From NCBI GenBank assembly GCA_963847195.1, contig CAWJZC010000027.1, positions 115,323 through 179,322 on the forward strand: DNA of 64,000 nt, in the 5' to 3' direction. The notes beneath the pieces were generated by a model. The model had not been told where the DNA came from, did no database searches, and worked only from the letters and a program-made list of their open reading frames with translations. Positions 28,298 through 51,442 of the stretch are shown in pieces. The position numbers were made by a program, and so were the translations under genes. The stretch comes from an uncultured Chloroflexia bacterium (lineage in GTDB: Bacteria > Chloroflexota > Chloroflexia > Thermomicrobiales > JALYUS01). The stretch's first letter is position 1, and the number at the start of each line of letters is the position of its first letter.

Positions 28298-28382
28298 GGG
28301 GGAGTGTCGGAACTGGCAGACGAGCATGACTTAGGATCATGTGCCGCAAGGCGTGAGAGTTCGAGTCTCTCCTTCCCCACCA
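28298..28382 (+). tRNA. tRNA-Leu(TAG)
   Basis: GGGGGAGTGTCGGAACTGGCAGACG..CATGA-CTTAGGA-TCATG, long variable arm, GTTCGAG T-loop, ACCA end. Confidence 0.95.
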
Positions 28383-28396
28383 ATAGTCTGATTTGA

Positions 28397-28471
28397 GCGG
28401 AAGTGGCTCAGTGGTAGAGCATCTCCTTGCCAAGGAGAAGGTCGCGAGTTCGAATCTCGTCTTCCGCTCCA
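28397..28471 (+). tRNA. tRNA-Gly(GCC)
   Basis: GCGGAAGTGGCTCAGTGGTAGAGC..CTCC-TTGCCAA-GGAG..GTTCGAATC..CTTCCGCTCCA. Confidence 0.96.
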
Positions 28472-31657: not shown

Positions 31658-31791
31658 CCGTCGTCTTTGTCGGTGGACTTGCGACCGGGCATACTGGCGC
31701 GCTATCATCCGGGGCGCGGTGGCATGGGACCACGCGCCGTTATTGAACTGCCACCGTGCATGTGAGAGAAGAGAAGGGAACGGGTTACACT

Positions 31792-33349
31792 GTGAAAGTC
31801 ACCGCCGAGCGGCTTCCGGAAAGCCAGGTCCGGCTCGAAATCGCCTCCGACGATGAGGAATTTAAGAAGGCGTACGATCGCGCGACGCAGCGCGTGTCGC
31901 AGCGCGTTACCGTGCCCGGATTCCGGCGCGGGAAGGCGCCGCGCGCGCTCGTCGAGCGGCATGTCGGCCGGCCGGTGATCGTCGATGAGGCGAACGGCGC
32001 CCTGATGGACGATCTCTACCGCCAGGCGCTCGAGCAGGAAGACCTGACGCCGGTGGCGCGCCCCTCGGTGGAGGTGCTGACGCAGGAACCGCTCTCCTTC
32101 CGGGTGGAAGTCGAGATCACCCCGACGGTCGATGTGACCGGCTATGAGGATGTCCGCGTCGAGCCGGAGCATTTCACGCTCACCGATACCGAAGTGGACG
32201 AGTACATCCAGCGACTGCGCGAGGAGAATAGCCCGTGGGTCGATCCGCCGACGCCGCGCGCTGTGCAGGAGGGCGATCAGGTTGTCGTGGACATCGCGGC
32301 GTTCGAGGGCGACGAGCCGTTCGACGAGCCGACGACGGGCGCGACCTTCACGCTCGGCAACGATAATCTCCTGCCGCAGATCCGCGGACTGATCCTCGGC
32401 GCGACGGTTGGCGAGCCGGTCGAGAAGACCGTCGTCTTTCCGGAGGCGAACGAAGAGGAGACAGAGCGGCCAATCCCGGAGAGCCTGCTCGGCAAGACGC
32501 TCCTTTACCGCGTCACCGTGCAGAGCATCAAGGAGCGCGAGCTCTTGCCGGAGGATGACGAACTGGGCGCCTCGATCGGTGGTCGCCCGATGACGCTCGC
32601 CGCCCTGCGCGCCGAAATACGCTCCGGTCTGCATCAGCAGAAAGAGATCCAGGCGCGCAATGCGCTCGTTAATTCGATCATGGAGAAACTGCGCGATGAC
32701 GTGGCGAAGGTCGAGATCGGCCCGGCCCTCATCAATCAGCAGACGCAGGAAGACGCCGGCCAGCAATTGCAGCAGATCGGCGGGATGGGCCTCGACATCA
32801 ACGAGATCTTCGGCCGGAACACCGACGCGCTGACCAATTTCCTCGAACGCATCCGCCCCGAGTCCGAGCGACGGCTCCGTAACACGCTGATCCTGCGCGA
32901 GATCGGCGAGCACGAGCATATCGACGTGACGCCCGAGGACGTGCATGAGGAGGTCCATCGCCTCGGCATGTCCCACAGCGTCCTGGAGGACGAGCGCACC
33001 GTCGAACTGATCGAGGCGGACCTGCGCGAGCGCAAGTTGCTCGACCGCGTGATCGAGATCGCCACCGAAGGCAAGGGCGTGATCGACGATTCCCCGGAGA
33101 GCGCCTACATCCTGCCGCCCGACGCCGAGGAGACCGAGCCGGAAGCCGGGGCGGCGCGAGGCAGGGCTACCGGAGGATGTCGCGCTCGAAACGCCGGCGG
33201 ATGAAACGCGGGCGATGGAGGCCAAGGGCGAAACTGCGGACGCTCCCGCCGCCACACCGGATGAAAATGCTGGTACAATGGATGGAGATGGGGAAACGTC
33301 CGCAACTGACGCGCCCGCCGCGACTAATGAGGCGCCAACATCCGCGTAA
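31792..33349 (+). CDS. tig: Trigger factor (acidic C-terminal tail shifted by an indel near 33155)
   Basis: VPGFRRGKAP ribosome-binding motif, FKBP-like middle region, position upstream of clpP-clpX. Confidence 0.93.
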
Positions 33350-33392
33350 CATTGGCCACACCCATCCGTTACACCATTGGAAGGAAACGGAC

Positions 33393-34025
33393 ATGCGTTC
33401 AGGTCTCGAGATCAACAATATCATCCCGGCGGTCGTGGAGAGCACGAATCGCGGCGAGCGCTCGTGGGACATCTACTCCCGCCTGCTGCGCGACCGCATC
33501 GTCTTCATCGGCACGCCGATCGACGCCCAGGTGGCGAACGTCTTCATCGCCCAGCTCCTCTTCCTCGACTACGAGGACCCGGACCGCGAGATCAAGGTCT
33601 ACATCAACAGCCCCGGCGGCGAGGTTTACGCAGGCCTGGCGATGTACGACACGATGCAGATGATCCGCTCCGATGTCTCGACCTACTGCATGGGTTTTGC
33701 GGCGAGCATGGGCGCGGTGCTCTTGTGCGCCGGGCAGAATGGCAAGCGATACGCGCTGCCGAACTCCCGCGTGCTGATCCACCAGGGCTCCGGCGGCTTC
33801 CGGGGCAATGTGCCGGACATCGACATCGCCGCGCGGGAGACGATCAACGTCGTCACGCGGCTCGTCGAGATCATGGCGAACCACAGCAACCAGCCGTTCG
33901 ACAAGGTGAAGCGCGACACCGAGCGCGACTACTACATGAACGCCGAGGAGGCGAGGGATTACGGTCTGATCGACGAAATCCTCATGCCGCAGCCGAAGAA
34001 GGTCGCGGGAGCAGTGTTGGCCTAG
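33393..34025 (+). CDS. clpP: ATP-dependent Clp protease proteolytic subunit
   Basis: [24 protein letters not shown] (Ser), IHQ (His), ERDYYM. Confidence 0.97.
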
Positions 34026-34096
34026 CACGCCGTTGCGGCGTGCTTTCGTACCGTGGCGCGGCCTGCGCGTGCGGGCGGAATGAGGAGCGTTTGGGG

Positions 34097-35395
34097 ATGG
34101 CAGGTACGCGCGGAACGACGGGAAGTGGGAGCGGAAGCCGGATGCAGTATCGCTGCTCCTTTTGCGGCAAAGGGCAAGACGAGGTCAAACGACTGATCGC
34201 CGGTCCCGGCGCGGTCTATATATGCGACGAGTGCGTCGAGCTCTGCCGCGAGATCATCGAGGAAGAGGAAGTGCCGACGCCGAAGGTGCAACCCTCCTTC
34301 GCCGGTATCTCGACACCGAAGCGCATTCACGAGCAACTCTCGCAATACGTCGTTGGGCAGGAGATGGCGAAGAAGAGCCTCGCTGTCGCCGTCTACAACC
34401 ACTACAAGCGCATCACGGCGGGCGCGGAGCCGAACAACGATGTCGAACTCCAGAAGAGCAACATTCTGCTCGTCGGACCGACGGGCTGCGGCAAGACCTA
34501 CCTCGCGCAGACGCTTGCCAAAATCCTCGACGTCCCCTTCTCCATCGCGGACGCCACGGCGCTCACCGAAGCCGGCTACGTCGGTGAGGACGTGGAGAAT
34601 ATCCTCCTCCGGCTGATCCAGAATGCCGGCGATGTGGCGCGGGCTGAGACGGGCATCATTTACATCGACGAAATCGACAAGATCGCGCGCAAATCGGACA
34701 ATCCGTCCATCACGCGCGATGTTTCCGGTGAGGGCGTGCAGCAGGCGCTCCTGAAGATTATCGAGGGCACGACGGCCAATGTGCCGCCGCAGAGCGGTCG
34801 CAAGCACCCCCACCAGGAATACATCCAGATCGACACGCGCAATATCCTCTTTATCTGCGGCGGCGCCTTCGAGGGGCTGGAAGATATTATTGCACGGCGG
34901 ATGGATTCGAAGCATACGATGGGCTTCATGGGCATCGGCAGCACGCAGACAAAGAACGAGCAGGAGAATCTACTGCGGCACGTCACGCACGATGATTTGT
35001 TGAAGTATGGCCTGATCCCCGAGTTCGTCGGGCGCCTGCCGATCACCGTCAGCCTCGACCAACTTTCGCGCAGCGAACTGATCCGCATCCTCACCGAGCC
35101 AAAGAATGCCGTCATCAAGCAATATCAGCGCCTCTTCGGCCACGATAATGTCGAGTTGTCCTTCACCGAGGACGCGCTCGAAGAGATCGCCACCCAGGCC
35201 GAGCGTCGCAAGACGGGAGCGCGCGGCCTGAAGACCGCCATTGAATCGCTCCTCTTGGATGTGATGTACGAAATCCCCTCGCTGGACAATGTCCGCAAGT
35301 GCATCGTCAACGGCGAGACCGTCCGCTCCGGCAAGCAGCCAATCCTGATGACCCTCGGTGGCCGCGAACTGGAATTGGAAGACACCGTCGCGTAA
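34097..35395 (+). CDS. clpX: ATP-dependent Clp protease ATP-binding subunit
   Basis: CSFCGK zinc finger, [28 protein letters not shown] loop. Confidence 0.98.
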
Positions 35396-36696: not shown

Positions 36697-39677
36697 CTAC
36701 GTAGATGGCAGGTCAGCTAGTCCGTGATGGATGGCGAACGCCGTGGCATCGGCACGCCCACGCGCGTTGGTCTTGACGTAAATATTGTTGAGGTGGCGCT
36801 CGGCCGTGCGGACGCTCATGCCAAGTGCATCGCCGATGGCCCGGTTGCTGTAGCCGGCCGCGAGGAATCGAATTACTTCGATCTCTCGCTGTGTGAGGCC
36901 GGTTGGGTGCGTCGCAGACCGTGCCGCCACGCGCGCCCCGAGTGCATCGATACGGGCGAGCGTCGGCTTTGCGCCCAGCGCGCTGGCAAGCGCACGGGCG
37001 CTATCGAGGAGCGCGCGGGCTTCCGCGCGGGCGCCCATCACCGCGTGCAGTTCGGCTTGCGCGAGAATGGTGAGTGATCGCTCAAATGGCACGGCGCAGG
37101 AGACGGCGAGCGCGAGCGACGTCTCGAAGTGTGCTGCGGCCCGGTCAAAGTCTCGAGCGTCAGTCGCAAGTTCGCCAAGGAGCCTGTGCGCTCTGAGTAG
37201 GACAAGGGGTTGCCGCGGTTGTTGCGCCGCCGCCACCGCATCGAGCGCACGCGATTCCGCCTCCCCGCGATTCCCCATATCTCGGTGGTATGCCGCCCAG
37301 CCGAGATGCCCATCTGCCTGGCCGAGCACGCCAGTGTTCCATGCCAGCCAACGATCATGGGCTGTCAGCCATGCGAACGCCTCGGTCGTGTCGCGCACGT
37401 CCATTGCGAGGGCGGCGGCAAGTCGCAGGAGGGGAAGCGTATAGGCGAACACGAGCGTCCCCGGTTCCGTCGCGGGGCCGTCCGGGAGCATTTGGCGCAC
37501 CACTGCGCGGGCCCGCTCGGCATCGCCCTGTTCATGGCTTAGCGGGCCGAGGACACTGGCGCCTAATTGGCGGGTTGCGGGGAGCGGGCGGGCAAAGAGA
37601 TCCTCCGCGAGGGGGCGCGCCTCATCCCAATCGCCATGGACAACGAGCAGCGGCAGCCGGACCACACGCGGAATGGGCTGATAACCCGAGCCGGTATCCC
37701 GCTGCCATGCCTCTTCACCCGCCGCCGCTATCGCCTCGCAATACGCGGTATCGTCGAGTAGATACGGGACAAGCAGCGTCGTCAGTGTATAGAGCGCCGT
37801 AAATCCTATGCCAAGGTCTGCCCCCGCGCGCGCATATGCGGCGCTGCTCCGGATATACGCGGCTCGTGCCGTCTCTACGTCGCCGAGGATGCTGTGCGCG
37901 ATCCCCAGTCCTGTCGCCTCTGTACCGATGGCAGTGTCGCTCGTGCCCTCATCTCCCGCCTGTGCGATGCTCCGCTCGAACGTATCGGCATGGTGTACCG
38001 CCTCGCGTGCCCGCCCGCTCCATGCGAGGTAATGCGTTAGGAAGCCGTGGCAATCCGCAACGGTCGTGACCGGATAGCGATCGATGCGCGCTCGCTCATC
38101 GGCGGTTAGGCTGTCGAGCAGATCGATCCCCGTTATCATCTCGGTCAGTGCTTGTTGCAAGTCGCCGCCCAAGTAACGGTTCGATCCGTGCTGGAAGGTT
38201 GCGCCCGCTCGTAACGCACGATCGTCGATCGTCGCGGCGATGCGGAGTGATTCTTCCAGGTGCGCGTTCGCCGCACGCAGATCGGAAAAGCGAAGCCCGA
38301 GCGCGAGGCGGTACAGGAGCCAGCCGCGCTGCGGGTTGGCATCCTCCCCGGAGGCGTCCAACATATCGAGGGCGGCGCGGAATCGACCGTGCGCCGTCAC
38401 CCAAGCAAATGCGTCCATCGCTTGTTCACCGGCGCGTATTAGCCATTCGGTCGCGCGTGGGTCTCCAGCCTGCATGAGATGGTCAGCCACCATATTGGCA
38501 TTGGGCGCGCGGTTCGCGAGAAGAGCGTCTGCGATCTCGCGATGCCAGACCCGCCGTCGTGCGGTGAGGAGGTCCTCGAGGAGCGCCTCACGGATGAGGG
38601 CATGCACGAAACGGACAGCCCTGCCGCCGGCGCGCTCCTCCAGGATGCGCGCCGACACTGCATACTCCATGAGATGGAGGAGGGCATGATCGCTCGCTCC
38701 ACTGACCGTTTGCCACAGATCAAGCGGCACTTCGTGGCCGATAACGGCGGCGATCGAAAGGAGGCGTCGCGCCTCGGCGCTTGATCGCGGGAGATGCGCG
38801 TCGATCACTTGCCGGAGGAGGGGGGGATGCGCGCCGTACGCAAATCACCGAGCGCCCAGGCATTCGCGCCCCTGCGGAGTATGCCCTCATCACGCAGCGC
38901 ATGAAGCACTTCGGTCATGAAGAACGGATTGCCCTCCGTGCGCGCATGGAGATCGTCGGCGAGCGCCGCCGCATCACGATCCGGCAGCGCGAAGCGACGG
39001 GCCACATATTCAAGGAGATCGGCCTTCGTCAGGCGATCGAGAACGATACGATCCGCGTCGGCTTCGCGCACGAGCAGGGGAACGACCACATTAAGTGCGT
39101 GCTCGTGCGACAAATGATCGGAACGATATGCGGCGATGATCAGGACTGGTAACGTGTGCAGTTGGCGCGCGAGGCGGCGCAACAGATCGAGGCTTTCCGG
39201 GTCGCTCCAATGGAGGTCATCAAGGATCAGCACCACCGGATGCCGTGCGGCGATCACCTGGACGAAATCATATACCTGACGGAACAGCGTCACTTGATTC
39301 GGAATCGCTCCCATACCATCAGGGCGCGCAAACGCGGGAGGAACGCTAGGGAGCGTGCTCGGCCGCTCGCCCAGCGCATACCGGGCAAAGAGATCCGTCC
39401 ATAGGCCATACGGCGCCGTCTCGGTACGGTCGTAGCAGCGACCGGTCAGCACGATCGCGCCCCGGCCCATCGCGTGTTGCCCGATCGCGGCGGCGAGTGA
39501 CGTTTTACCAATGCCTGCTTCGCCACTCAGAAGGATCAAGGTGCCGACGCCGCTGAACGTCGCGTCGAGGCGTTCGCGGAGTCGGTCGAATTCGCGCTCT
39601 CGTCCAACGAGAGGCGGCGACCCGTCAGGAGCCACACCAATACCACGCGCAGAGAGCGTCACACTTCTATCCCGCAT
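36697..39677 (-). CDS. MalT/LAL-type regulator: STAND AAA ATPase, TPR region, LuxR HTH (frameshift near 38805)
   Basis: LVGRERE, GEAGIGKTSL, ILDDLHWSD, RTEGNPFF, FVHALIRE, GLTQREIEVIRFLAAGYSNRAI..SVRTAERH. Confidence 0.9.
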
Positions 39678-39865
39678 TACATCCGATGACAAAATGCCGC
39701 CACACAAATATTAGAACGTGAAAAGTGAGCAATGTGTGACGCCCACCTCGCCTCATCGGCCTCGGTGCGAGCGCGATGCATCTCGCCCCGCGAACCTTTC
39801 AAATGTACTCGTTCTGATCAGGCGCCACCTGGGATGAACGCAGTTGCTCATGCGCGTGGAACTGC

Positions 39866-40606
39866 CTACTTCCCGGCGTGCGGCACCGGCAAGGCATCGT
39901 GTTCGTCGCTCTCGGCGGCGTTCTCGTCTTCGTTGGCGGCGCGGTGTTCCTCGTCGGAATGCGGGCTGAATGAGGCGGGTTGCTGGTAGCCGCGCACGCT
40001 CGCGCCATAGGGTCGCGGGGCGTATCCGCCGGTGGGGGGCGTGCGCGCGGCCGGCACGACGCCCTCGGGCCGCGCATAACCCTGCCGGGGCGGCAGGTCC
40101 GCGCGGGCGAACTGGGCGACGTTCGCCTCGAGGTCGATGAACTGATCCGCGATGTCCATCAGGTCGGTCGCGGCCTGGCGGGGCGTCGCGGCCACCTCGA
40201 TACGCAGGCCGGCATTCTGCGCGGCATCGACGAGATTGACGAAGTCGCCATCGCCGCTGACGACGATCGCCACGTCGATGTGCGGCGCTTGCGTGAGCAG
40301 ATCGATGGCAAGCTCCATATCGAGGTTCGCCTTCGTGCTGCCATCCTCAAAACGGCGGAGCGCCTTCGTCTTGACGCGGAAGCCGTTGCGCTTCAGCCAG
40401 GTGATGAAACTGTGGCTGCTCTCGTCCTCGGGGTTGTAGCCCAGATAAGCGTAGGCGCGGTGCAATCGCCGCCCCGACGTGAGGAAGTCGAGCAGGCGGG
40501 CGTAATCGATGCGGATGCCCATATCCCGCGCCGCGAAATAGAGGTTCGACATATCAAAAAAAATTGCGATCCGATCTGCCTCATCGTGCCGGCGTGACGC
40601 GCGCAT
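39866..40606 (-). CDS. NYN-domain (LabA/DUF88, PIN-like) protein with disordered C-terminal tail
   Basis: IFFDMSNLY, KANLDMELAID, VSGDGDF, ADQFIDL. Confidence 0.92.
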   Translation of the reverse strand: MRASRRHDEADRIAIFFDMSNLYFAARDMGIRIDYARLLDFLTSGRRLHRAYAYLGYNPEDESSHSFITWLKRNGFRVKTKALRRFEDGSTKANLDMELAIDLLTQAPHIDVAIVVSGDGDFVNLVDAAQNAGLRIEVAATPRQAATDLMDIADQFIDLEANVAQFARADLPPRQGYARPEGVVPAARTPPTGGYAPRPYGASVRGYQQPASFSPHSDEEHRAANEDENAAESDEHDALPVPHAGK

Positions 40607-40763
40607 GGAGAAACCCCTTTCAATCAGCCAATCTACAAAGCACACCCGACAGGCAACGCCTGACCGTCAACCATTGCAAGAAGTGCGTCCGTTGCGTTTT
40701 CAACCCTCTCCGTCGTCGCGATAGTCTATCACGCCCTTTGCCGCTCAAACAAACCGTACAGCA

Positions 40764-43079
40764 TCAACTATCCGCGGCAACGAGATGGCGCCATGCTTCA
40801 TTGATTCCCTCGTCGCCCACCGCGTAGAAGAAGCGAATGTCGCCGTTCTCCCGGTAAGCCAGGTTGTACCGGCGGACGCCGTCGCGCACGGCGCTGCCGA
40901 CGTAGCCGAGATCGCCCTCCCAGGTGATGCTCTCCGGTTCCGGTACGCCGCCCTCGCGCTCCATGATCGCCTGCCGCCACAATCGCCGCGCGGACTTGCG
41001 GGTGACGTTCTCGGCGACCCTGCCGGAGCGGAGGTCGCGCATCGTGTAGAACCGCTCGCCGTCCCGCTCCTCGACGGAGAGAATTTCCACTCCCGCCTTC
41101 GGGATCACCGCCGGTTCGCTGCCGTTCCGGCTGACAGGCGGGGTGGTTGCGCCGACGGGCATCGCCCGCTCCTCGATGACGCGCGCCACCAATGGCGCTG
41201 GCGCCGCTTCCGCCTCCGCTGGTGCGTCAGTCTTGGCCGGTCGGCGGGTACGGCGGCGGGGCCGTGGCTTCGGCGCTTCCGCAACCGGCTGCTCCGCTGG
41301 CGCATCGGGGGCGCTCACTGGCTCGGGCGCCGCAGACGGTTCGCTGGCAGCCGGTAGCGCGACGGGAGCGAGCGCCGCGATGACCACATCGTCTGGCACA
41401 GGCGAAGCGGTTTCGACGGGCGGGGCGGCTTCCGCAACTTCCGCAGGCGGTTCCAGATCGTAGACTGGGTGAACTTCCTCCGCTGACGCGGGTTCGCCCA
41501 GCGCCCCTGTTTGCGTTTCTTCGCTCTCGGCCGGTTTGCGCGCTGGTGACCGCCGCCGACGGGGGCGACGCTCCGGTCGCGGCGCGGACTGTGCTTCCTC
41601 GATTGGCGTATCCGCGCTGTCGGTTGCCTGGTTGTCGGCTCCCTGCGCCTCGTCCGATTCGTCGTCCTCATCCGGCGCCTGGCGCGGCGCGGTCCACGCG
41701 CGCTCGCGCGTCAAATCGACAGCGGGGAGCGTATCGGACGCCGCCGCCTCGCGGACCAACTGGACGATCTCATCACGCAAGGCGATAACCGTCTCGCTCT
41801 CCTGCCGCACGAACACTTGCCCGGCGTCCGTCGCATAGGGGGTGTTCAGGCCCTTCGGGATGGTGACGACGAGAATCGGCTTGCCGCCGCTCGCCTCGAC
41901 ATCGACGGTCACGTCCAGCTTCGGCACGACGCTCCGTGCCAGGGCGTCGCGCAGGCCGCGTGCCGCTTCGTCCGGGGCCGGCACACCGACGACCGGCTGC
42001 GTCGGGCTCGCATTCATGCCGACGTAGATCGTGCCGCCGTTCGTGTTCGCGAAGGCGACGACATCTTTGAGGATTGGGCGGTACCGGCTGCGGCGGCTGC
42101 GTACCTGCTCGTGGAAGGACTGGACAATCGACGGGCCCTGCTCGCGCGCCGCCTGCACGGCGTCGTAGGGCGTGGCGGTCACCGGCTGGTACGGGCGAAT
42201 GCGCGCGAAGTCCTCCGAGACGAAGAGTGCAAGGAGTGCGGGGAAGGAGCGCTCCGGCAGGAGTACTTCGGTGGCGCGGTCGCCGATGCCGAGATCGGTG
42301 TCGCGGTGCGCGCCCTCACGGGAGAGACGGTGCGCATCCGAGCCCTGGATGCAGTGCATCCGGCGCGGATATTCGGGCTTCGCGCCGTTGAAGAAGCTCG
42401 CCGTGGCGCGGCGCGTCATGTCGTCGAGGTCGGTCACTTCGAGCGCGTGGATATAGGGCGACTGCGTATAGGCGATCTTCGTCTGCCCACCGAAGCGGAA
42501 ACCCTGCATCGCCACGCCATGTGTCGAGTTGACGTGCGCCGGGATGACGAGGCCGCCATGCTCGTTGATGATCTCGTAGGCATTGAGGACATCGGCCGTT
42601 GCGCCGACCTGGCCGCTGCCCATCTCCATCTGATCTTCCGGCACATCGAGCATGAGGAGCAGGTGTTCGAGCCGCCGCACCGTCGTCTCCGGCGGGAAGA
42701 TGCCGAGGATGTGGAAGCCGAACGCAGCGGTGAACTCGAAGCCGGGCAGGACGAGCATTTTGCCGAGCAGGCGGCGATATTCTTCGAGGATTTTCCACTC
42801 CGCCGGCGTGAGGCGGTTCAATTCTTCGAGTAATTCGAGGTCTTCGATTTCGCGCCGCATGGCGGCGATACCGCTGACGCTGTTATGGTCCGTGAAGGCG
42901 ATGATGTCGAGGCCGCGCCCCTCCGCCTTCTGCAGTATCTCCAGATAGGTGGCGGCGAGGTCCTGGTAATCTGCCGACGCGGGTGTATGGAGATGCAGAT
43001 CCATACGGAACCACGTCATCTCCTGCGCGTCGCGCGTCTGGTGGCCGCGTCCACCCCTTCCGCGTCGTGTCCGTGACAT
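40764..43079 (-). CDS. Multidomain protein: PHP phosphoesterase, Schlafen/AlbA_2 domain, low-complexity linker, small C-terminal domain
   Basis: DLHLHTPAS, FTDHN, PGFE, FHIL, PAHV, GSDAH; DVVAFANTNGGTIYVG..VVGV..VVTIPKG..VFVRQESET. Confidence 0.85.
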   Translation of the reverse strand: MSRTRRGRGGRGHQTRDAQEMTWFRMDLHLHTPASADYQDLAATYLEILQKAEGRGLDIIAFTDHNSVSGIAAMRREIEDLELLEELNRLTPAEWKILEEYRRLLGKMLVLPGFEFTAAFGFHILGIFPPETTVRRLEHLLLMLDVPEDQMEMGSGQVGATADVLNAYEIINEHGGLVIPAHVNSTHGVAMQGFRFGGQTKIAYTQSPYIHALEVTDLDDMTRRATASFFNGAKPEYPRRMHCIQGSDAHRLSREGAHRDTDLGIGDRATEVLLPERSFPALLALFVSEDFARIRPYQPVTATPYDAVQAAREQGPSIVQSFHEQVRSRRSRYRPILKDVVAFANTNGGTIYVGMNASPTQPVVGVPAPDEAARGLRDALARSVVPKLDVTVDVEASGGKPILVVTIPKGLNTPYATDAGQVFVRQESETVIALRDEIVQLVREAAASDTLPAVDLTRERAWTAPRQAPDEDDESDEAQGADNQATDSADTPIEEAQSAPRPERRPRRRRSPARKPAESEETQTGALGEPASAEEVHPVYDLEPPAEVAEAAPPVETASPVPDDVVIAALAPVALPAASEPSAAPEPVSAPDAPAEQPVAEAPKPRPRRRTRRPAKTDAPAEAEAAPAPLVARVIEERAMPVGATTPPVSRNGSEPAVIPKAGVEILSVEERDGERFYTMRDLRSGRVAENVTRKSARRLWRQAIMEREGGVPEPESITWEGDLGYVGSAVRDGVRRYNLAYRENGDIRFFYAVGDEGINEAWRHLVAADS

Positions 43080-43184
43080 GCTGCTGTGCGTCGCTCCTGC
43101 TGCACGCGCCGTCCGCGTGGCGAAAAGGCCAATCCGGCCCGCGCACGATTGTCGCATACGCCCTTGCGCACGGCAAACCGGGCG

Positions 43185-43239
43185 GAATCCTGGCCCCCGG
43201 TCCCTTCCCTGCGAGGGAAGGGACGGGGGGCCAGGATTC
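43185..43239. repeat. REP-like hairpin in the divergent promoter region
   Basis: gaatcctggccccc..tcccttccct-gcg-agggaaggga..gggggccaggattc. Confidence 0.7.
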
Positions 43240-43351
43240 TCACGTGCGACGGTCCACATACCCTCATCCATGGCCTATGGGCGCGACAGACGAGGCGCAC
43301 GTACGGTAGAGTACCTGCGATGTGGTGGCGGACGATCCACAAGCGGGAGCG

Positions 43352-43993
43352 ATGATGCGGGAAGATTCTTTGGACCTCACGGCGTTTCTCGACCGGCTGG
43401 CCTCAAACGTACCGACGCCCGGTGGCGGGGCGGCGTCCGCGCTCGTCGGCGCGCTCGGGGCGGCGTCGGTCGCCAAAGTGGCGGCGGTGAGCGTCGGCAA
43501 GCCGAAATTCGCGGCGCACGACGAGGATCTGCGCGGTCGCCTCGATGCATTGCTGGCGGTACGCCAGCGCTTCATCGCGCTCGCCGCTGAGGACGAGGCG
43601 GCCTTCGCCACCTATATGTCCGCCCTCCGGTTGCCGCGCGGGAGCGACGAGGAACGCGCGGCGCGGGCCGCCGCCCTCCAGGAAGGGATGCGACAGGCGG
43701 CTGCCGTGCCGTTGCGGATCATGGCCGCCGCGCGGGAGGTGCTGGAAGCGGCTGAGGTAATCGCGGTGATCGGCAACCCGACCGCACTCGGCGACTGCGG
43801 CGCGGGTGCGACGATGGCGGTGGCGGCGATGCGCACCTCGCTCCTCAATGTCACGGCGAACATCGCGGGCCTCGTCGATGGCGCGGAGGTCGCGGGCTAC
43901 CGGGCGCAGTTGCACGATCTGATGGGTGATGTCGATACACGCGAGCGCGCGCTACTGGAGGCGGTTCGTCGCCGTCTCGCGGGTGAGGAATAG
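43352..43993 (+). CDS. fchA: Cyclodeaminase/cyclohydrolase family protein (FTCD_C; FchA-like)
   Basis: FLDRLASNVPTPGGGAASAL.GALG, DEAAF, VPL, GNPTALGD, SLLNVTANI. Confidence 0.88.
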   Translation: MMREDSLDLTAFLDRLASNVPTPGGGAASALVGALGAASVAKVAAVSVGKPKFAAHDEDLRGRLDALLAVRQRFIALAAEDEAAFATYMSALRLPRGSDEERAARAAALQEGMRQAAAVPLRIMAAAREVLEAAEVIAVIGNPTALGDCGAGATMAVAAMRTSLLNVTANIAGLVDGAEVAGYRAQLHDLMGDVDTRERALLEAVRRRLAGEE

Positions 43994-47027: not shown

Positions 47028-49226
47028 ATGTCGCTTGACGACCGTATCGGTCGCCCCAATTTGTTCACTCCGAACGACCGCAATTCGCGGAACCCGTTGG
47101 ACGACCCGAACAAGCGCGTGCCGCGCGTGCCGCGTAAAACGGACGACCCGAACAATCTGGGCAATAGGCCGCGTTTCCGTGTCCCTGGTTGGATCTGGTG
47201 GATTCTGCTCGCCGGTCTGTTGATCTGGAACATCCTTGCCCTTACCAACCCCTTCACGGCGGGGCCGACGAGCATCAATTACAGCGGCTTCCTCGCGCAG
47301 GTGCAGGCGGGCAATGTCAGCGACGTGACGCTGCGCGACCGGAACGTCACCGGCACATTCAAGCAGTCTGTCAAAGTGCAGAATGGCGATGTGGTCAGTG
47401 GGCCGGGCGTCGCCGCCACGCCGCCGACCGCAGCGCCGACCGCGACCAGCGGCGGCACCACCAGCGCGCCGACCAAGACGGTGACGGATTTCAAGACGAG
47501 TCTGCCCGTCGTGGAGAATCCGACGCTCCTGCCGCTCCTCCAGCAGCAGAATGTCAAGGTAAACGTCAAGGGGACGGATAGCGGCGGGTTCGTCTCGCTG
47601 CTGCTCAATCTCCTCATCAGCCTGCTCCCGCTGGCGCTCTTCATCGGCCTCGCCGTCTTCCTCGGGCGGCAGGTGACGCGCGGGCAGCAAGGCATCATGG
47701 GATTTGGCAAGTCGCAGGCGCGCGTCCACGACGCGGAGCGCCCGCAGGTGACCTTCGGCGATGTCGCCGGCGAGGACGAGGCGAAGCAGGAACTGACGGA
47801 GGTCGTCGACTTCCTGAAGAATCCCGGCAAATATCACCTGCTCGGCGCGCGGCTGCCCCGCGGCGTGCTGCTCGTCGGCCCTCCCGGCACCGGCAAGACG
47901 CTGCTCGCCAAGGCGGTCGCCGGGGAGTCGGGCGTGCCCTTCTTCAGCGTCTCGGCCTCCGAGTTCGTCGAGATGTTCGTCGGCGTCGGCGCATCCCGCG
48001 TGCGCGATCTCTTCAATAAGGCGAAGACCGCGTCGCCCGCGATTGTCTATGTCGATGAGATCGACGCGGTCGGGCGGCAGCGCTTCGCCGGCCTCGGCGG
48101 CGGCAACGATGAGCGCGAGCAGACGCTCAATCAACTGCTCGTTGAGATGGATGGCTTCGACCCGAAGCAGGAAGTCGTCGTCCTCGCCTCGACGAACCGG
48201 CCCGACGTGCTGGACCCGGCGCTGCTGCGGCCGGGCCGCTTCGACCGGCAGGTGACGGTCGGCCTGCCCGATCGCAAGGGGCGCGAGGCGATCCTGAAGA
48301 TTCACTCGCGCGGCCTGCCTCTCGCGCAAGATGTCAACCTTAACCGCGTGGCGCAGTCAACGCCGGGCTTTGCGGGCGCGGACCTCGCCAACCTGGTCAA
48401 CGAGTCCGCCCTCCACGCGGCGCGGGGCAACCGCCAGCAGATTACCGCCGCCGATTTCTCCGAGGCGCTCGATAAGATCATCCTCGGCACGGCGCGCGGG
48501 CTGATCCTCAACGACCACGACAAGAAAGTCGTCGCCTTCCACGAGGCGGGGCACGCGGTGGCGGCCTATTACTCGCCGGGCACGGACCCCTTGACGAAGG
48601 TCTCCATCGTGCCGCGCGGTCGCGCGCTCGGCGTGACGATCCAGAGCCCGGAGGAGGACCGGTTCAATTACCCGAAGGCATACCTGCTCGCGCGCCTGGT
48701 CGTGATGTTCGGCGGTCGCGCGGCGGAGGAAATCGTCATCGGCGAGATAACGACGGGCGCGGAGAGCGACCTCAAAGAATCGACCTCGCTCGCGCGGCGG
48801 ATGGTCGGACTCTGGGGGATGAGCGAGGAGGTCGGCTCCCTCTACCTCGGTACGGGGGAGCAGGACGTCTTCCTCGGCCGTGAATTGACGCGGGACCGCG
48901 ACTACAGCGAGGACACGATTTCCGCCGCCGATCGTGCCGTCCGCGAGTTGCTGGAGCGGTCGCATCATCGGGCGACGCAACTGCTCACCGAGCATCGCGC
49001 GGCGCTCGATCTGCTGGCGCAGCGCCTGCTCGACGACGAGACGCTCGACCAGGAGCAGGTCTTCGCCATCTTCGAGGCCGCGGACGGCGGGATGCCGCGC
49101 GACGGATTCACGAGCGAGCCGGGGGCGCGGCCCGCTCCGGTCCCGGAGCCGGCGCTCTCAGGCGGTATCCGCACGGAGAGCGGTGATACATCGGTAACCG
49201 AGAGGCCGTCCGTGATGACCGACTGA
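47028..49226 (+). CDS. ftsH: ATP-dependent zinc metalloprotease FtsH
   Basis: Two TM helices, [30 protein letters not shown]. Confidence 0.97.
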
Positions 49227-50178: not shown

Positions 50179-50565
50179 TTAGAGTCGTTCGAAACGGAGG
50201 ATTTTCAGCGCGAAGACGACCGCGCCGCCGACCGGCACCTCCATCACATCGGACGGATACCAGGCGTGGATATCGAGCATGTCGGGCGGCACGACTTCCA
50301 TCCGCTCGCGGCAGTGCTCCATAATCATCCGCTTGACGCGCGAGACCTGCCAGTCCTCCACGCCGATCAGGAGCGTCGTGCTGCCCATGCGCAGAAAACC
50401 GCCCGTGCTGCCGACGCGCGTGAGGCGGAAGTGCGCCTGCGTGAGCGCGTCCGTGATCGCGTTCGCGTCGTAATCCTGCACGACCGCCACGATCAGTTTG
50501 GTCGGCACCGTGCGGGCCGTCGCCGATGGTGGGTAGGTGTTGACAGGGGGAACGGTCACGGGCAT
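50179..50565 (-). CDS. darA: Cyclic-di-AMP receptor, PII-like (DarA/PstA/YaaQ)
   Basis: KLIVAVVQDYD, STGGFLRMGSTTLLIGVED, VGGAVVF. Confidence 0.88.
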   Translation of the reverse strand: MPVTVPPVNTYPPSATARTVPTKLIVAVVQDYDANAITDALTQAHFRLTRVGSTGGFLRMGSTTLLIGVEDWQVSRVKRMIMEHCRERMEVVPPDMLDIHAWYPSDVMEVPVGGAVVFALKILRFERL

Positions 50566-50665
50566 TTCCTTCCGATGCGCAGGTTCAGTATCCTGTCGTG
50601 GGTTTATACCACGTTGTCGGCGCATGGTACACTCCCCTGACAAGACGGAAAGGTACGCGGGAGAC

Positions 50666-51442
50666 GTGGCTGGGACGCGCGCACAGAAAAATCAAGGTCC
50701 GCGCGATCTCCTACTCCTTGTCATCGCGCGTGCGGGCGACGGCGGTGTTGAGATCGCGGGCGTCGATCCGGCCAGCGGATCGTGGCTGCGGATAGCGAAT
50801 GCCGAGGGCGCACGGGTCTTCTCGCCGGCTATCCTGTCCCGCCCCAATGACGGTTATCTCCAGGCGTTCGACACGGTGCGGCTGCCCCGCGCGACGCCGA
50901 TGCCGCACTCGCCCTTTGTCGAGCGCGCCGCGGTCGATCTGACGACGGCCCCCGCCGTCCTCGGCCATGTCGAGGAGCGCGCCCTCAGCCGCACACTGGC
51001 AGAGATCGCCGTGCCACACCTCGATACCCTCCTACCGGCGGGGAAGCGCGTCCTGACGCCGAAGGATTTCCAACCGGGAGGCCGCCAGCGATCGATCGCG
51101 ATGCTCCGGCCCGACCAACTGCAACATATCCACTTCTCGTATGAGGGCGAGGGTGTCCGCGCGGGGGTCGCGTTCCGCCATCGCGGTCAGGCATACGGCG
51201 GCGTGATGGGCCTGCCCTGCCCGGACATCAAACTGCGCGCCTTCGCGCGCGCGGCGTTGCGCAAGGAGGGGTCGCTGGCGATCACGCTCGACGGGAAGGC
51301 GTGCTACAACCGCTTCGCGTGCGGGCGTATCTATCTGACAATTGGCCTGGTCGAAGGGGCGGACGAGACCTTCTGGCCCCAGGTGCTCGGCTTCCACCCT
51401 ATCCGAGAATACGCCGCGACGATCGACTACGCGCGCCTGTAA
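50666..51442 (+). CDS. Dual OB-fold domain-like protein
   Basis: IAGVD..SGSWLRI, FDTVRLP, RSIAMLRP, RIYLTIGL..QVLG pattern; weak, by eye. Confidence 0.45.
   Translation: MAGTRAQKNQGPRDLLLLVIARAGDGGVEIAGVDPASGSWLRIANAEGARVFSPAILSRPNDGYLQAFDTVRLPRATPMPHSPFVERAAVDLTTAPAVLGHVEERALSRTLAEIAVPHLDTLLPAGKRVLTPKDFQPGGRQRSIAMLRPDQLQHIHFSYEGEGVRAGVAFRHRGQAYGGVMGLPCPDIKLRAFARAALRKEGSLAITLDGKACYNRFACGRIYLTIGLVEGADETFWPQVLGFHPIREYAATIDYARL

Follow-up and report, generated by a model that had tools for sequence, protein, structure and literature searches.

We describe a gene at positions 40764..43079, on the (-) strand, of a 64,000-nucleotide stretch of contig CAWJZC010000027.1 from an uncultured Chloroflexia bacterium (the window, that is, the whole stretch of DNA that was analysed). 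Its open reading frame (ORF) and translation give a protein of 771 residues and a stop codon. In this protein a PHP-type metal-dependent phosphoesterase or nuclease domain is followed by a Schlafen/AlbA_2 domain, by a long acidic and Pro-rich linker with two arginine clusters, and by a conserved C-terminal domain; we refer to it as the PHP-AlbA_2 protein. This anatomy, first proposed in a sequence-only reading of the window, is borne out by Pfam and NCBIfam matches and by structural models. The genome carries a single copy of the gene.

The reading frame is open over 40764-43271(-) in the ORF list of the window, and the start of the protein was placed at 43079. In support of this start, diverged homologues whose sequence differs further downstream share the N-terminal peptide, M-[SA]-R-[ST]-R-R-G-R-G-G-R-G, at the protein level. 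The first 12-20 residues, MSRTRRGRGGRG..., recur in homologues whose callers took the long start; many gene callers chose a later Met instead. The conserved basic peptide (residues 1-20, 43020..43079 (-)) is RGG-like and has an isoelectric point (pI) of 12.

The PHP domain covers residues 21-300 (42180..43019 (-)). In NCBIfam, residues 22-264 match the PHP part of TrlF (5.9e-26), Ppl (2.7e-20), Spaf_1101 (7.3e-13) and CehA/McbA (1.6e-11). The match to RNase RNM is just 2.1e-5, further weak matches are to a 3',5'-bisphosphate phosphatase and a cyclic phosphate dihydrolase, and all of these PHP matches lie far under the full-length cut-offs of their models. The PADLOC profile of Ppl also matches (5.7e-15), restricted to its PHP part (profile positions 6-220 of 894). 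We modelled residues 21-450 with AlphaFold2 from an alignment of 36 diverse members of the family (A1; mean predicted local distance difference test score, pLDDT, 92.1) and compared the models with known folds by Foldseek, with VIA as a second look. The PHP part is closest to EndoQ (5zb8, Z 19.9 over 229 aligned residues at 3.2 A; 7k30, Z 19.1), followed by TM0559 (Z 17.2), PsfC (Z 16.8), RNase AM (Z 15.8), an AMP-bound Chromobacterium enzyme (Z 13.7) and the PHP domains of Pol III/PolC (Z 11-13). Similarity to PHP enzymes at Z 14-20 identifies the PHP barrel. The ligand candidates D27, H29, H31, D37, D64, H65, E115, H123, H182, D248 and H250, which we take to match the canonical nine-ligand PHP set, have been retained by 33-36 of the 36 members of A1. 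Since the ligands are so conserved, the metal site is intact, as the sequence-only reading had it, and under selection; fold and ligands together place the domain in the PHP superfamily.

The second domain (residues 305-450, 41730..42167 (-)) has the Schlafen fold and has lost the Schlafen nuclease residues. PF04326 (SLFN_AlbA_2) matches residues 327-430 with an E value of 9.9e-17 and 62 bits, against a cut-off of 25.3, which makes the domain a member of this family. Its model is closest to 3lmm (DIP2311, Z 12.6) and 2kyy (Z 11.9), followed by SLFN14 (Z 10.0), the tRNase domain of SAMD9 (Z 9.9) and SLFN5/11/12/13 (Z 8.8-9.8). The residues E17, D22 and K24 of the Schlafen motif are required for tRNA cleavage by Cash (PMC13462974). 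Three alignments bear on their counterparts here. Against four canonical AlbA_2+HATPase_c_4 proteins from Chloroflexota (alignment A3), which carry G-E-x4-E-F-K and G-[VAL]-x-D, the protein of the window reads G-P-S-I-V-Q-S-F-H and G-M-N-A. In a HMMER alignment to the family profile, SLFN14 residue 211 (the entry carries E211A) falls on S321, and D248/D249 fall on N356/A357. Among the 36 members of A1, column 316 holds P in 18, E in 4 and D in 2; column 321 is A in 16, S in 15, V in 3 and I in 2, and acidic in none of the 36; column 323 is H in 23 and Y in 6, with Lys in none; and column 357 is A in 12, G in 8, P in 7 and D in 3. In place of E-x4-E/D-x-K and the Asp of GVxD, the protein thus has P316, S321, H323, N356 and A357. 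From this family-wide loss of motif residues, the AlbA_2 domain is predicted to be catalytically dead throughout the family. The sequence-only reading had already noted that the acidic residues were lost, and the three alignments agree. Its further statement that GVxD reads GMN holds as to the loss of the motif, but its alignment was one residue off. The proposal that the dead Schlafen domain acts as a binding module and not as a nuclease likewise gains support, because the catalytic residues are lost.

The linker (residues 451-640, 41160..41729 (-)) is acidic and rich in Ala and Pro, with A 42, P 32, E 25, R 19, V 13 and D 13 among its 190 residues and a pI of 4.5; from this composition it is presumed to be disordered. 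Its two arginine clusters were located in the translation: RPERRPRRRR at residues 501-510 (41550..41579 (-)) and KPRPRRRTRR at residues 604-613 (41241..41270 (-)). Linker length and sequence differ among homologues. Of 35 homologues, 19 have basic clusters of the (K)PRRRRR type in the tail that follows AlbA_2; in this count the tail includes the C-terminal domain wherever the motif of that domain was missed. The likeness of the linker to the scaffold of RNase E is one of composition only.

The conserved C-terminal domain (residues 641-771, 40767..41159 (-)) was modelled as the C-terminal 132 residues on 31 sequences (alignment A2), which gave two beta-beta-beta(-beta)-alpha halves at a pLDDT of 85.5. 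Foldseek against the PDB returned nothing at E <= 0.001 for this domain; the best match, at E 0.025, was among double-stranded RNA-binding domains, SsgA/SsgB, Pur-alpha and chromodomains. A wide VIA search reached at best Z 4.9 (chromodomain/Sso7d-like halves), under the level of kinship, and the ESM Atlas gave no usable match for the domain. A homodimer prediction with two copies of residues 18-132 of A2 scored 0.01, a result that speaks neither for a dimer nor against one. In the homologues of about 775-813 residues from families f6 and f7 of the wider phylum (see below), two tandem copies of the domain are present, and most of the long acidic linker is missing (L033:9565-10587, L034:9584-10573, L035:7549-8880).

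The gene belongs to a large family centred on Chloroflexota. A word-indexed search scored 8000 proteins, 6938 of them at E <= 0.001. Among the best 120 homologues, those that are named come from Thermomicrobiales, Thermomicrobia, Sphaerobacter or Chloroflexota, under generic labels such as 'RNA-binding domain-containing', 'putative DNA binding domain-containing' and 'PHP family Zn ribbon phosphoesterase'. An exhaustive comparison of residues 21-450 with 1.84 billion representatives gave 1849 matches at E <= 0.001, 503 at <= 1e-10 and 132 at <= 1e-30, and the neighbours of the protein in the ESM Atlas are exclusively Chloroflexota clusters.

Presence was counted in 41 genomes of the order, made up of the own genome and families f1 (the family of the window) to f5, and in a wider set of 201 genomes across the phylum. 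Full-length orthologues occur in 29 of the 41: the own genome, all 11 others of f1, 7/7 in f2, 8/8 in f3, 1/7 in f4 and 1/7 in f5; two further matches are weak and confined to PHP. The f1 counts include the unpublished genomes G004 and G005, without which f1 stands at 9/9 for both this gene and its NYN neighbour (see below), the rest being unchanged. In the wider set 27 of the 201 genomes have the gene, all-or-none by family (f6 13/13, f7 6/6, f9 2/2, f18 2/2, f25 3/3; other families 0). The A1 profile found some single-domain match in 63 of these 201 genomes, and no contiguous PHP+AlbA_2 outside the 27; of five long ORFs with single-domain matches that we inspected, four are AlbA_2+HATPase_c_4 proteins and one has no Pfam match. 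Between families of the order, identity is 53-62% over 430 residues.

Downstream on this strand, after a spacer of 118 bases (40646..40763 (-)), comes a gene for a NYN (LabA-like) protein (39866..40645 (-)). The protein matches PF01936 over the whole profile (positions 1-145 of 145) with an E value of 3.2e-35 and 122.2 bits against a cut-off of 24.2, and is thus a NYN family member. The Asp motifs FFDMSN, LDMELAID and SGDGDF were located by eye. Judged from the sequence, translation more likely begins at the ATG at 40606, which follows the motif GAAAGGGG. A simple scan of the spacer found no terminator-like or promoter-like site on the gene strand. No RNA reads are listed for positions 39700-43400 of the window; the runs listed are four of DNA type, with small shares.

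In the sequence-only reading the two genes were taken as partners, and conserved PHP-AlbA_2 and NYN synteny was named beforehand as the point on which the pairing would stand or fall. The linkage is not conserved. The NYN gene adjoins the PHP-AlbA_2 gene in all 12 f1 genomes (in two of them the latter is split over contigs, and NYN follows the C-terminal piece), and adjacency is confined to this family. In f2 the NYN orthologue is found in 6 of 7 genomes, on other contigs or 45 kb off (G024). NYN is absent from f3 (0/8) although the PHP-AlbA_2 gene is there in 8/8, while f4 has NYN in 7/7 and the PHP-AlbA_2 gene in 1/7, where the two lie 19 kb apart. There are only two weak NYN matches in f5 (25% identity), and none in 22 wider PHP-AlbA_2 loci. 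Within f1 the NYN proteins are 82-94% identical, versus 60-90% for the PHP-AlbA_2 protein. The adjacency in f1 only and the decoupled presence elsewhere argue that the linkage is family-level synteny of mutually independent genes. The NYN protein is a separate, strongly conserved housekeeping RNase candidate, and its gene adjoins the PHP-AlbA_2 gene in the family of the window alone. On other contigs, 10 of the 12 f1 genomes carry a second NYN paralogue with 36-39% identity to this protein (G000:C3:210972-211457 in the own genome).

The wider context is of a housekeeping kind. In the window the gene lies between a pair of AAA_16 and TPR/LuxR regulator genes and FTCD_C-folD-fhs. Trigger factor (tig) and clpX are 5-9 kb to one side; the trigger factor, probable clpP and clpX region spans 31756-35395 (+), and clpP is the ORF 33177-34025, a probable assignment outside the Pfam scan. 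The ftsH region (47028-49226 (+)) is 4 kb away on the other side. PADLOC reports no system in six neighbours of the gene, and no defence or mobile genes stand beside it in the window. Across 12 loci of f2-f5, examined with flanks of about 8 kb, the conserved neighbours are a divergent CvpA-like membrane protein (7 loci), a PknB-PASTA kinase, IspE, KsgA and SelD, and further EtfAB/FixC, DUF72, a SWIM protein and a BON protein. In three f9/f25 loci (L037, L038, L041) a canonical lon (LON_substr_bdg-AAA-Lon_C) lies directly upstream on the same strand, and in the f18 locus L039 it is 5 kb away. Nearby lon is thus found in 4 of the 5 loci of f9, f18 and f25, and in no others of the 42 scanned sources; in the own genome lon is on other contigs. 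Usually lon follows clpX. The positions of tig-clpPX and lon may be what is left of an earlier tig-clpPX-lon neighbourhood.

Some further features of the surroundings were noted. The AAA_16 ATPase ORF (38805-39707) and the TPR + LuxR/GerE ORF (36697-38808), both (-), overlap by 4 bases and look like one large STAND/MalT-type LuxR regulator, split or translationally coupled. A 301-residue ORF at 50537-51442 (+) matches the Pfam dual OB-containing domain DuOB (E 4.9e-7) and has no PADLOC match. The tRNAs nearest to the PHP-AlbA_2 gene are 11 kb off, at 28.3 kb of the window, where tRNA-Leu(tag) and tRNA-Gly(gcc) adjoin each other at 28298-28471 (+). Three f6 loci have, as divergent neighbour of the gene, a phage-integrase-family tyrosine recombinase (L035:10391-11494, L033:6841-7860, L042:9860-10867), assigned by a Pfam match for the L035 ORF and by blastp grouping for the L033 and L042 ORFs; it could be a XerC/D-type housekeeping enzyme.

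We consider that the PHP-AlbA_2 protein is probably a lineage-specific housekeeping nucleic-acid enzyme of Chloroflexia-type Chloroflexota. The PHP domain would be the sole catalytic centre, using bound divalent metals to hydrolyse phosphodiester or end-phosphate bonds. The nucleic-acid substrate would be held by the AlbA_2 domain, the RGG-like N-terminal peptide and the arginine clusters of the linker, and the C-terminal domain may add a further contact with nucleic acid or with a partner. In this mechanism the dead Schlafen domain and the basic tails would keep the nucleic acid in place for cleavage or trimming by the PHP domain. As for the substrate, DNA, with end-trimming or nicking of a repair type, is our tentative suggestion; RNA would be a somewhat doubtful one, and a non-nuclease role as a small-molecule phosphoesterase is rather unlikely. 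DNA is slightly favoured over RNA because the nearest PHP relatives, EndoQ by structure and Ppl/TrlF by sequence, are DNA nucleases: EndoQ nicks 5' of deaminated bases (PMC5961232), and a review describes Ppl as a single-stranded DNA 3'-5' exonuclease (PMC12904381).

Several observations weigh against this interpretation. The substrate class is drawn from relatives alone, and RNA rather than DNA is indicated by the NYN neighbour and by Schlafen domains and RGG-like peptides. Pfam's own PHP model, PF02811, scores 21.9 bits, below its cut-off of 26.4. The model of residues 21-450 has a predicted template modelling score of 0.67, at which the predicted arrangement of PHP and AlbA_2 is not fixed. 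Members from other classes (f9, f18, f25) are 57-61% identical, compared with 39-47% for the same-class f6/f7; inheritance may therefore not have been purely vertical, and the gap could come from transfer or from faster evolution of f6/f7. Families f4 and f5 mostly lack the gene, which is dispensable in these close relatives. No complementary nuclease explains this loss among the three that we checked, since none tracks the gene: RNase E/G (PF10150) is found in 0 of the 41 relatives, RNase Y in 41/41, with or without the PHP-AlbA_2 gene, and an RNase AM-like PHP protein in 41/41. The last is a TrpH/RNase AM-like protein of about 290-320 residues, with E values of 1e-45 to 1e-61 in 38 of the 41 and weaker ones in G000, G002 and G006. 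Its gene lies 1-2 kb downstream of rny on the same strand wherever coordinates were compared (G022:C2:1030815-1033895; G013:C7:77041-80241; and, in the own genome, G000:C21:226636-230093). At the own-genome locus one TGA and one TAG occur within the rny match, and only part of the PHP protein is matched, which could reflect an assembly error or a broken locus.

A different account makes the protein an RNA-processing hub: the dead Schlafen domain binds tRNA or rRNA, the PHP domain trims RNA ends as RNase AM does, and the linker recruits RNases such as the NYN protein in the manner of the RNase E C-terminal scaffold. The Schlafen-type fold with its matches to SLFN14 and the SAMD9 tRNase domain, the presence of RNase AM among the PHP fold matches, the RGG-like peptide and the recurrent arginine clusters all speak for it, as do the absence of RNase E/G from the relatives and the adjoining NYN gene throughout f1. 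But NYN and the PHP-AlbA_2 gene are decoupled outside f1, and the trimming role seems to be filled by the closer RNase AM-like protein near rny. RNase Y is universal among the relatives irrespective of our gene, the PHP domain is nearer to DNA nucleases, and partner recruitment is conjecture. We hold this account to be unlikely, though not negligible. With RNase E/G in none and RNase Y in all of the 41 relatives, the distribution neither supports nor excludes the analogy to the RNase E scaffold. A variant is quite doubtful: in organisms without RNase E/G, the protein would be a hub of RNA/DNA metabolism, in which a PHP nuclease is aimed at structured nucleic acid by a domesticated dead Schlafen domain and an RNase-E-like linker with the C-terminal domain, ancestrally tied to the lon / tig-clpPX stress-proteostasis neighbourhood. 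If this were true, a prokaryotic Schlafen domain would here, for the first time, have a housekeeping role. It also appears improbable that the protein is a non-nuclease regulator or architectural protein of the nucleoid or of RNA, anchored on nucleic acid by AlbA_2, tails and C-terminal domain, with a PHP domain that acts on a small phosphorylated molecule (a nucleotide, a pAp-like compound or a cyclic phosphate) or senses metal. PHP families do include nucleotide and histidinol-phosphate phosphatases, and the weak bisphosphate and cyclic-phosphate matches in NCBIfam, together with the fold matches to PsfC and the AMP-bound Chromobacterium enzyme, fit such a role. So do homologue labels of 'transcriptional regulator' or 'DNA binding domain-containing protein', and the AlbA_2 proteins of the phylum, which are mostly of the regulator-type AlbA_2+HATPase_c_4 kind. 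The best sequence and fold matches, however, are nucleases, Pfam finds no helix-turn-helix or HATPase_c_4 domain in the protein, and a small-molecule enzyme would not obviously need three nucleic-acid-binding elements.

The sequence-only reading had raised anti-phage defence, either by the gene itself or by a PHP-AlbA_2 and NYN module in which the dead Schlafen domain is the sensor and PHP and NYN are the effectors. The PADLOC match to Ppl, the PADLOC NYN and HEC-09 matches of the neighbour, and the action of prokaryotic Schlafen proteins in type III CRISPR immunity (PMC13462974) are in its favour. However, the Ppl match is confined to the PHP part and no ATPase is present, and the residues that Cash requires (E17, D22 and K24) have no counterpart in our protein. 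The gene is single-copy, present in all or none of a family's genomes outside the order, highly conserved in sequence and embedded in stable housekeeping synteny, with no PADLOC system and no defence or mobile genes adjoining it in the window, and the NYN linkage is limited to one family. This context is not that of a defence island or a mobile element. Defence is thus very improbable, and a housekeeping nucleic-acid enzyme remains our preferred interpretation.

Current work describes the Schlafen domains of prokaryotes as defence effectors that cut tRNA. Here, a large and slowly evolving family has lost the nuclease residues, and a dead Schlafen domain fused to an intact PHP enzyme is a core gene of whole bacterial families. 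The identity of the substrate would reveal how a dead Schlafen domain is used outside immunity, and would bring a further nuclease into view in Chloroflexota, whose nucleic-acid metabolism is poorly known. The case also cautions that co-orientation of PHP, AlbA_2 and NYN should not by itself be read as a defence module.

A PHP nuclease with accessory nucleic-acid-binding domains is of a known kind, and the fusion of PHP with AlbA_2 is uncharacterised in the literature that we found. A search judged by titles and the beginnings of abstracts gave no paper on this architecture; in the Cash paper (PMC13462974) this search covered the main text, where 'PHP' occurs 0 times, and not the supplements, in which families of Schlafen fusions may be listed. 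By sequence the nearest PHP domains are those of Ppl, an anti-phage protein encoded by a single gene that combines a PHP exonuclease with an NTPase, and of the PHP + AAA-like ATPases TrlF and Spaf_1101, in all of which, as in our protein, an N-terminal PHP domain precedes a large accessory part. The protein is a member of neither the TrlF nor the Ppl family: it reaches 91.5 of the 350 bits set for TrlF, over profile positions 4-242 of 944 only, and has no AAA-like ATPase, and it reaches 71.9 of the 1000 bits set for Ppl, over positions 3-213 of 882 only, and has no NTPase. The PHP-AlbA_2 gene is core and single-copy and not a patchy defence gene. EndoQ (PfuEndoQ; 5zb8, 7k30), the best structural match, shares the logic of a catalytic PHP domain with DNA-binding accessory domains, and homologues carry the EndoQ-type JGI name 'PHP family Zn ribbon phosphoesterase'. 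In EndoQ (PMC5961232), a C4 Zn-binding domain together with a helical domain at the C-terminus follows PHP. Our protein does not have this domain set: it has a single Cys in 771 residues, and AlbA_2 follows PHP.

RNase AM (YciV/TrpH; 7ug9, 9etk) has the same PHP fold and a weak sequence match, and at 23.9 bits against the 375 of NF047791 the PHP-AlbA_2 protein falls outside that family; the separate RNase AM-like protein of the 41 relatives is closer to RNase AM, yet is itself under the NF047791 cut-off. With the Schlafen nucleases (SLFN11/13/14, Cash) the protein shares the AlbA_2 fold and the AFANTxGG core motif. It differs from them in the catalytic residues of the E-x4-E/D-x-K and GVxD motifs, which are replaced (P316, S321, H323 and A357) and not conserved in the family, and in this it resembles the nuclease-inactive mammalian Schlafens mentioned in PMC13462974. 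The closest AlbA_2 structures belong to the 'RecG-like' AlbA_2 + HATPase_c_4 proteins (2kyy, 3lmm), which are common in Chloroflexota; unlike our protein, they keep E..EFK / GVxD, carry HATPase_c_4 and have no PHP domain.

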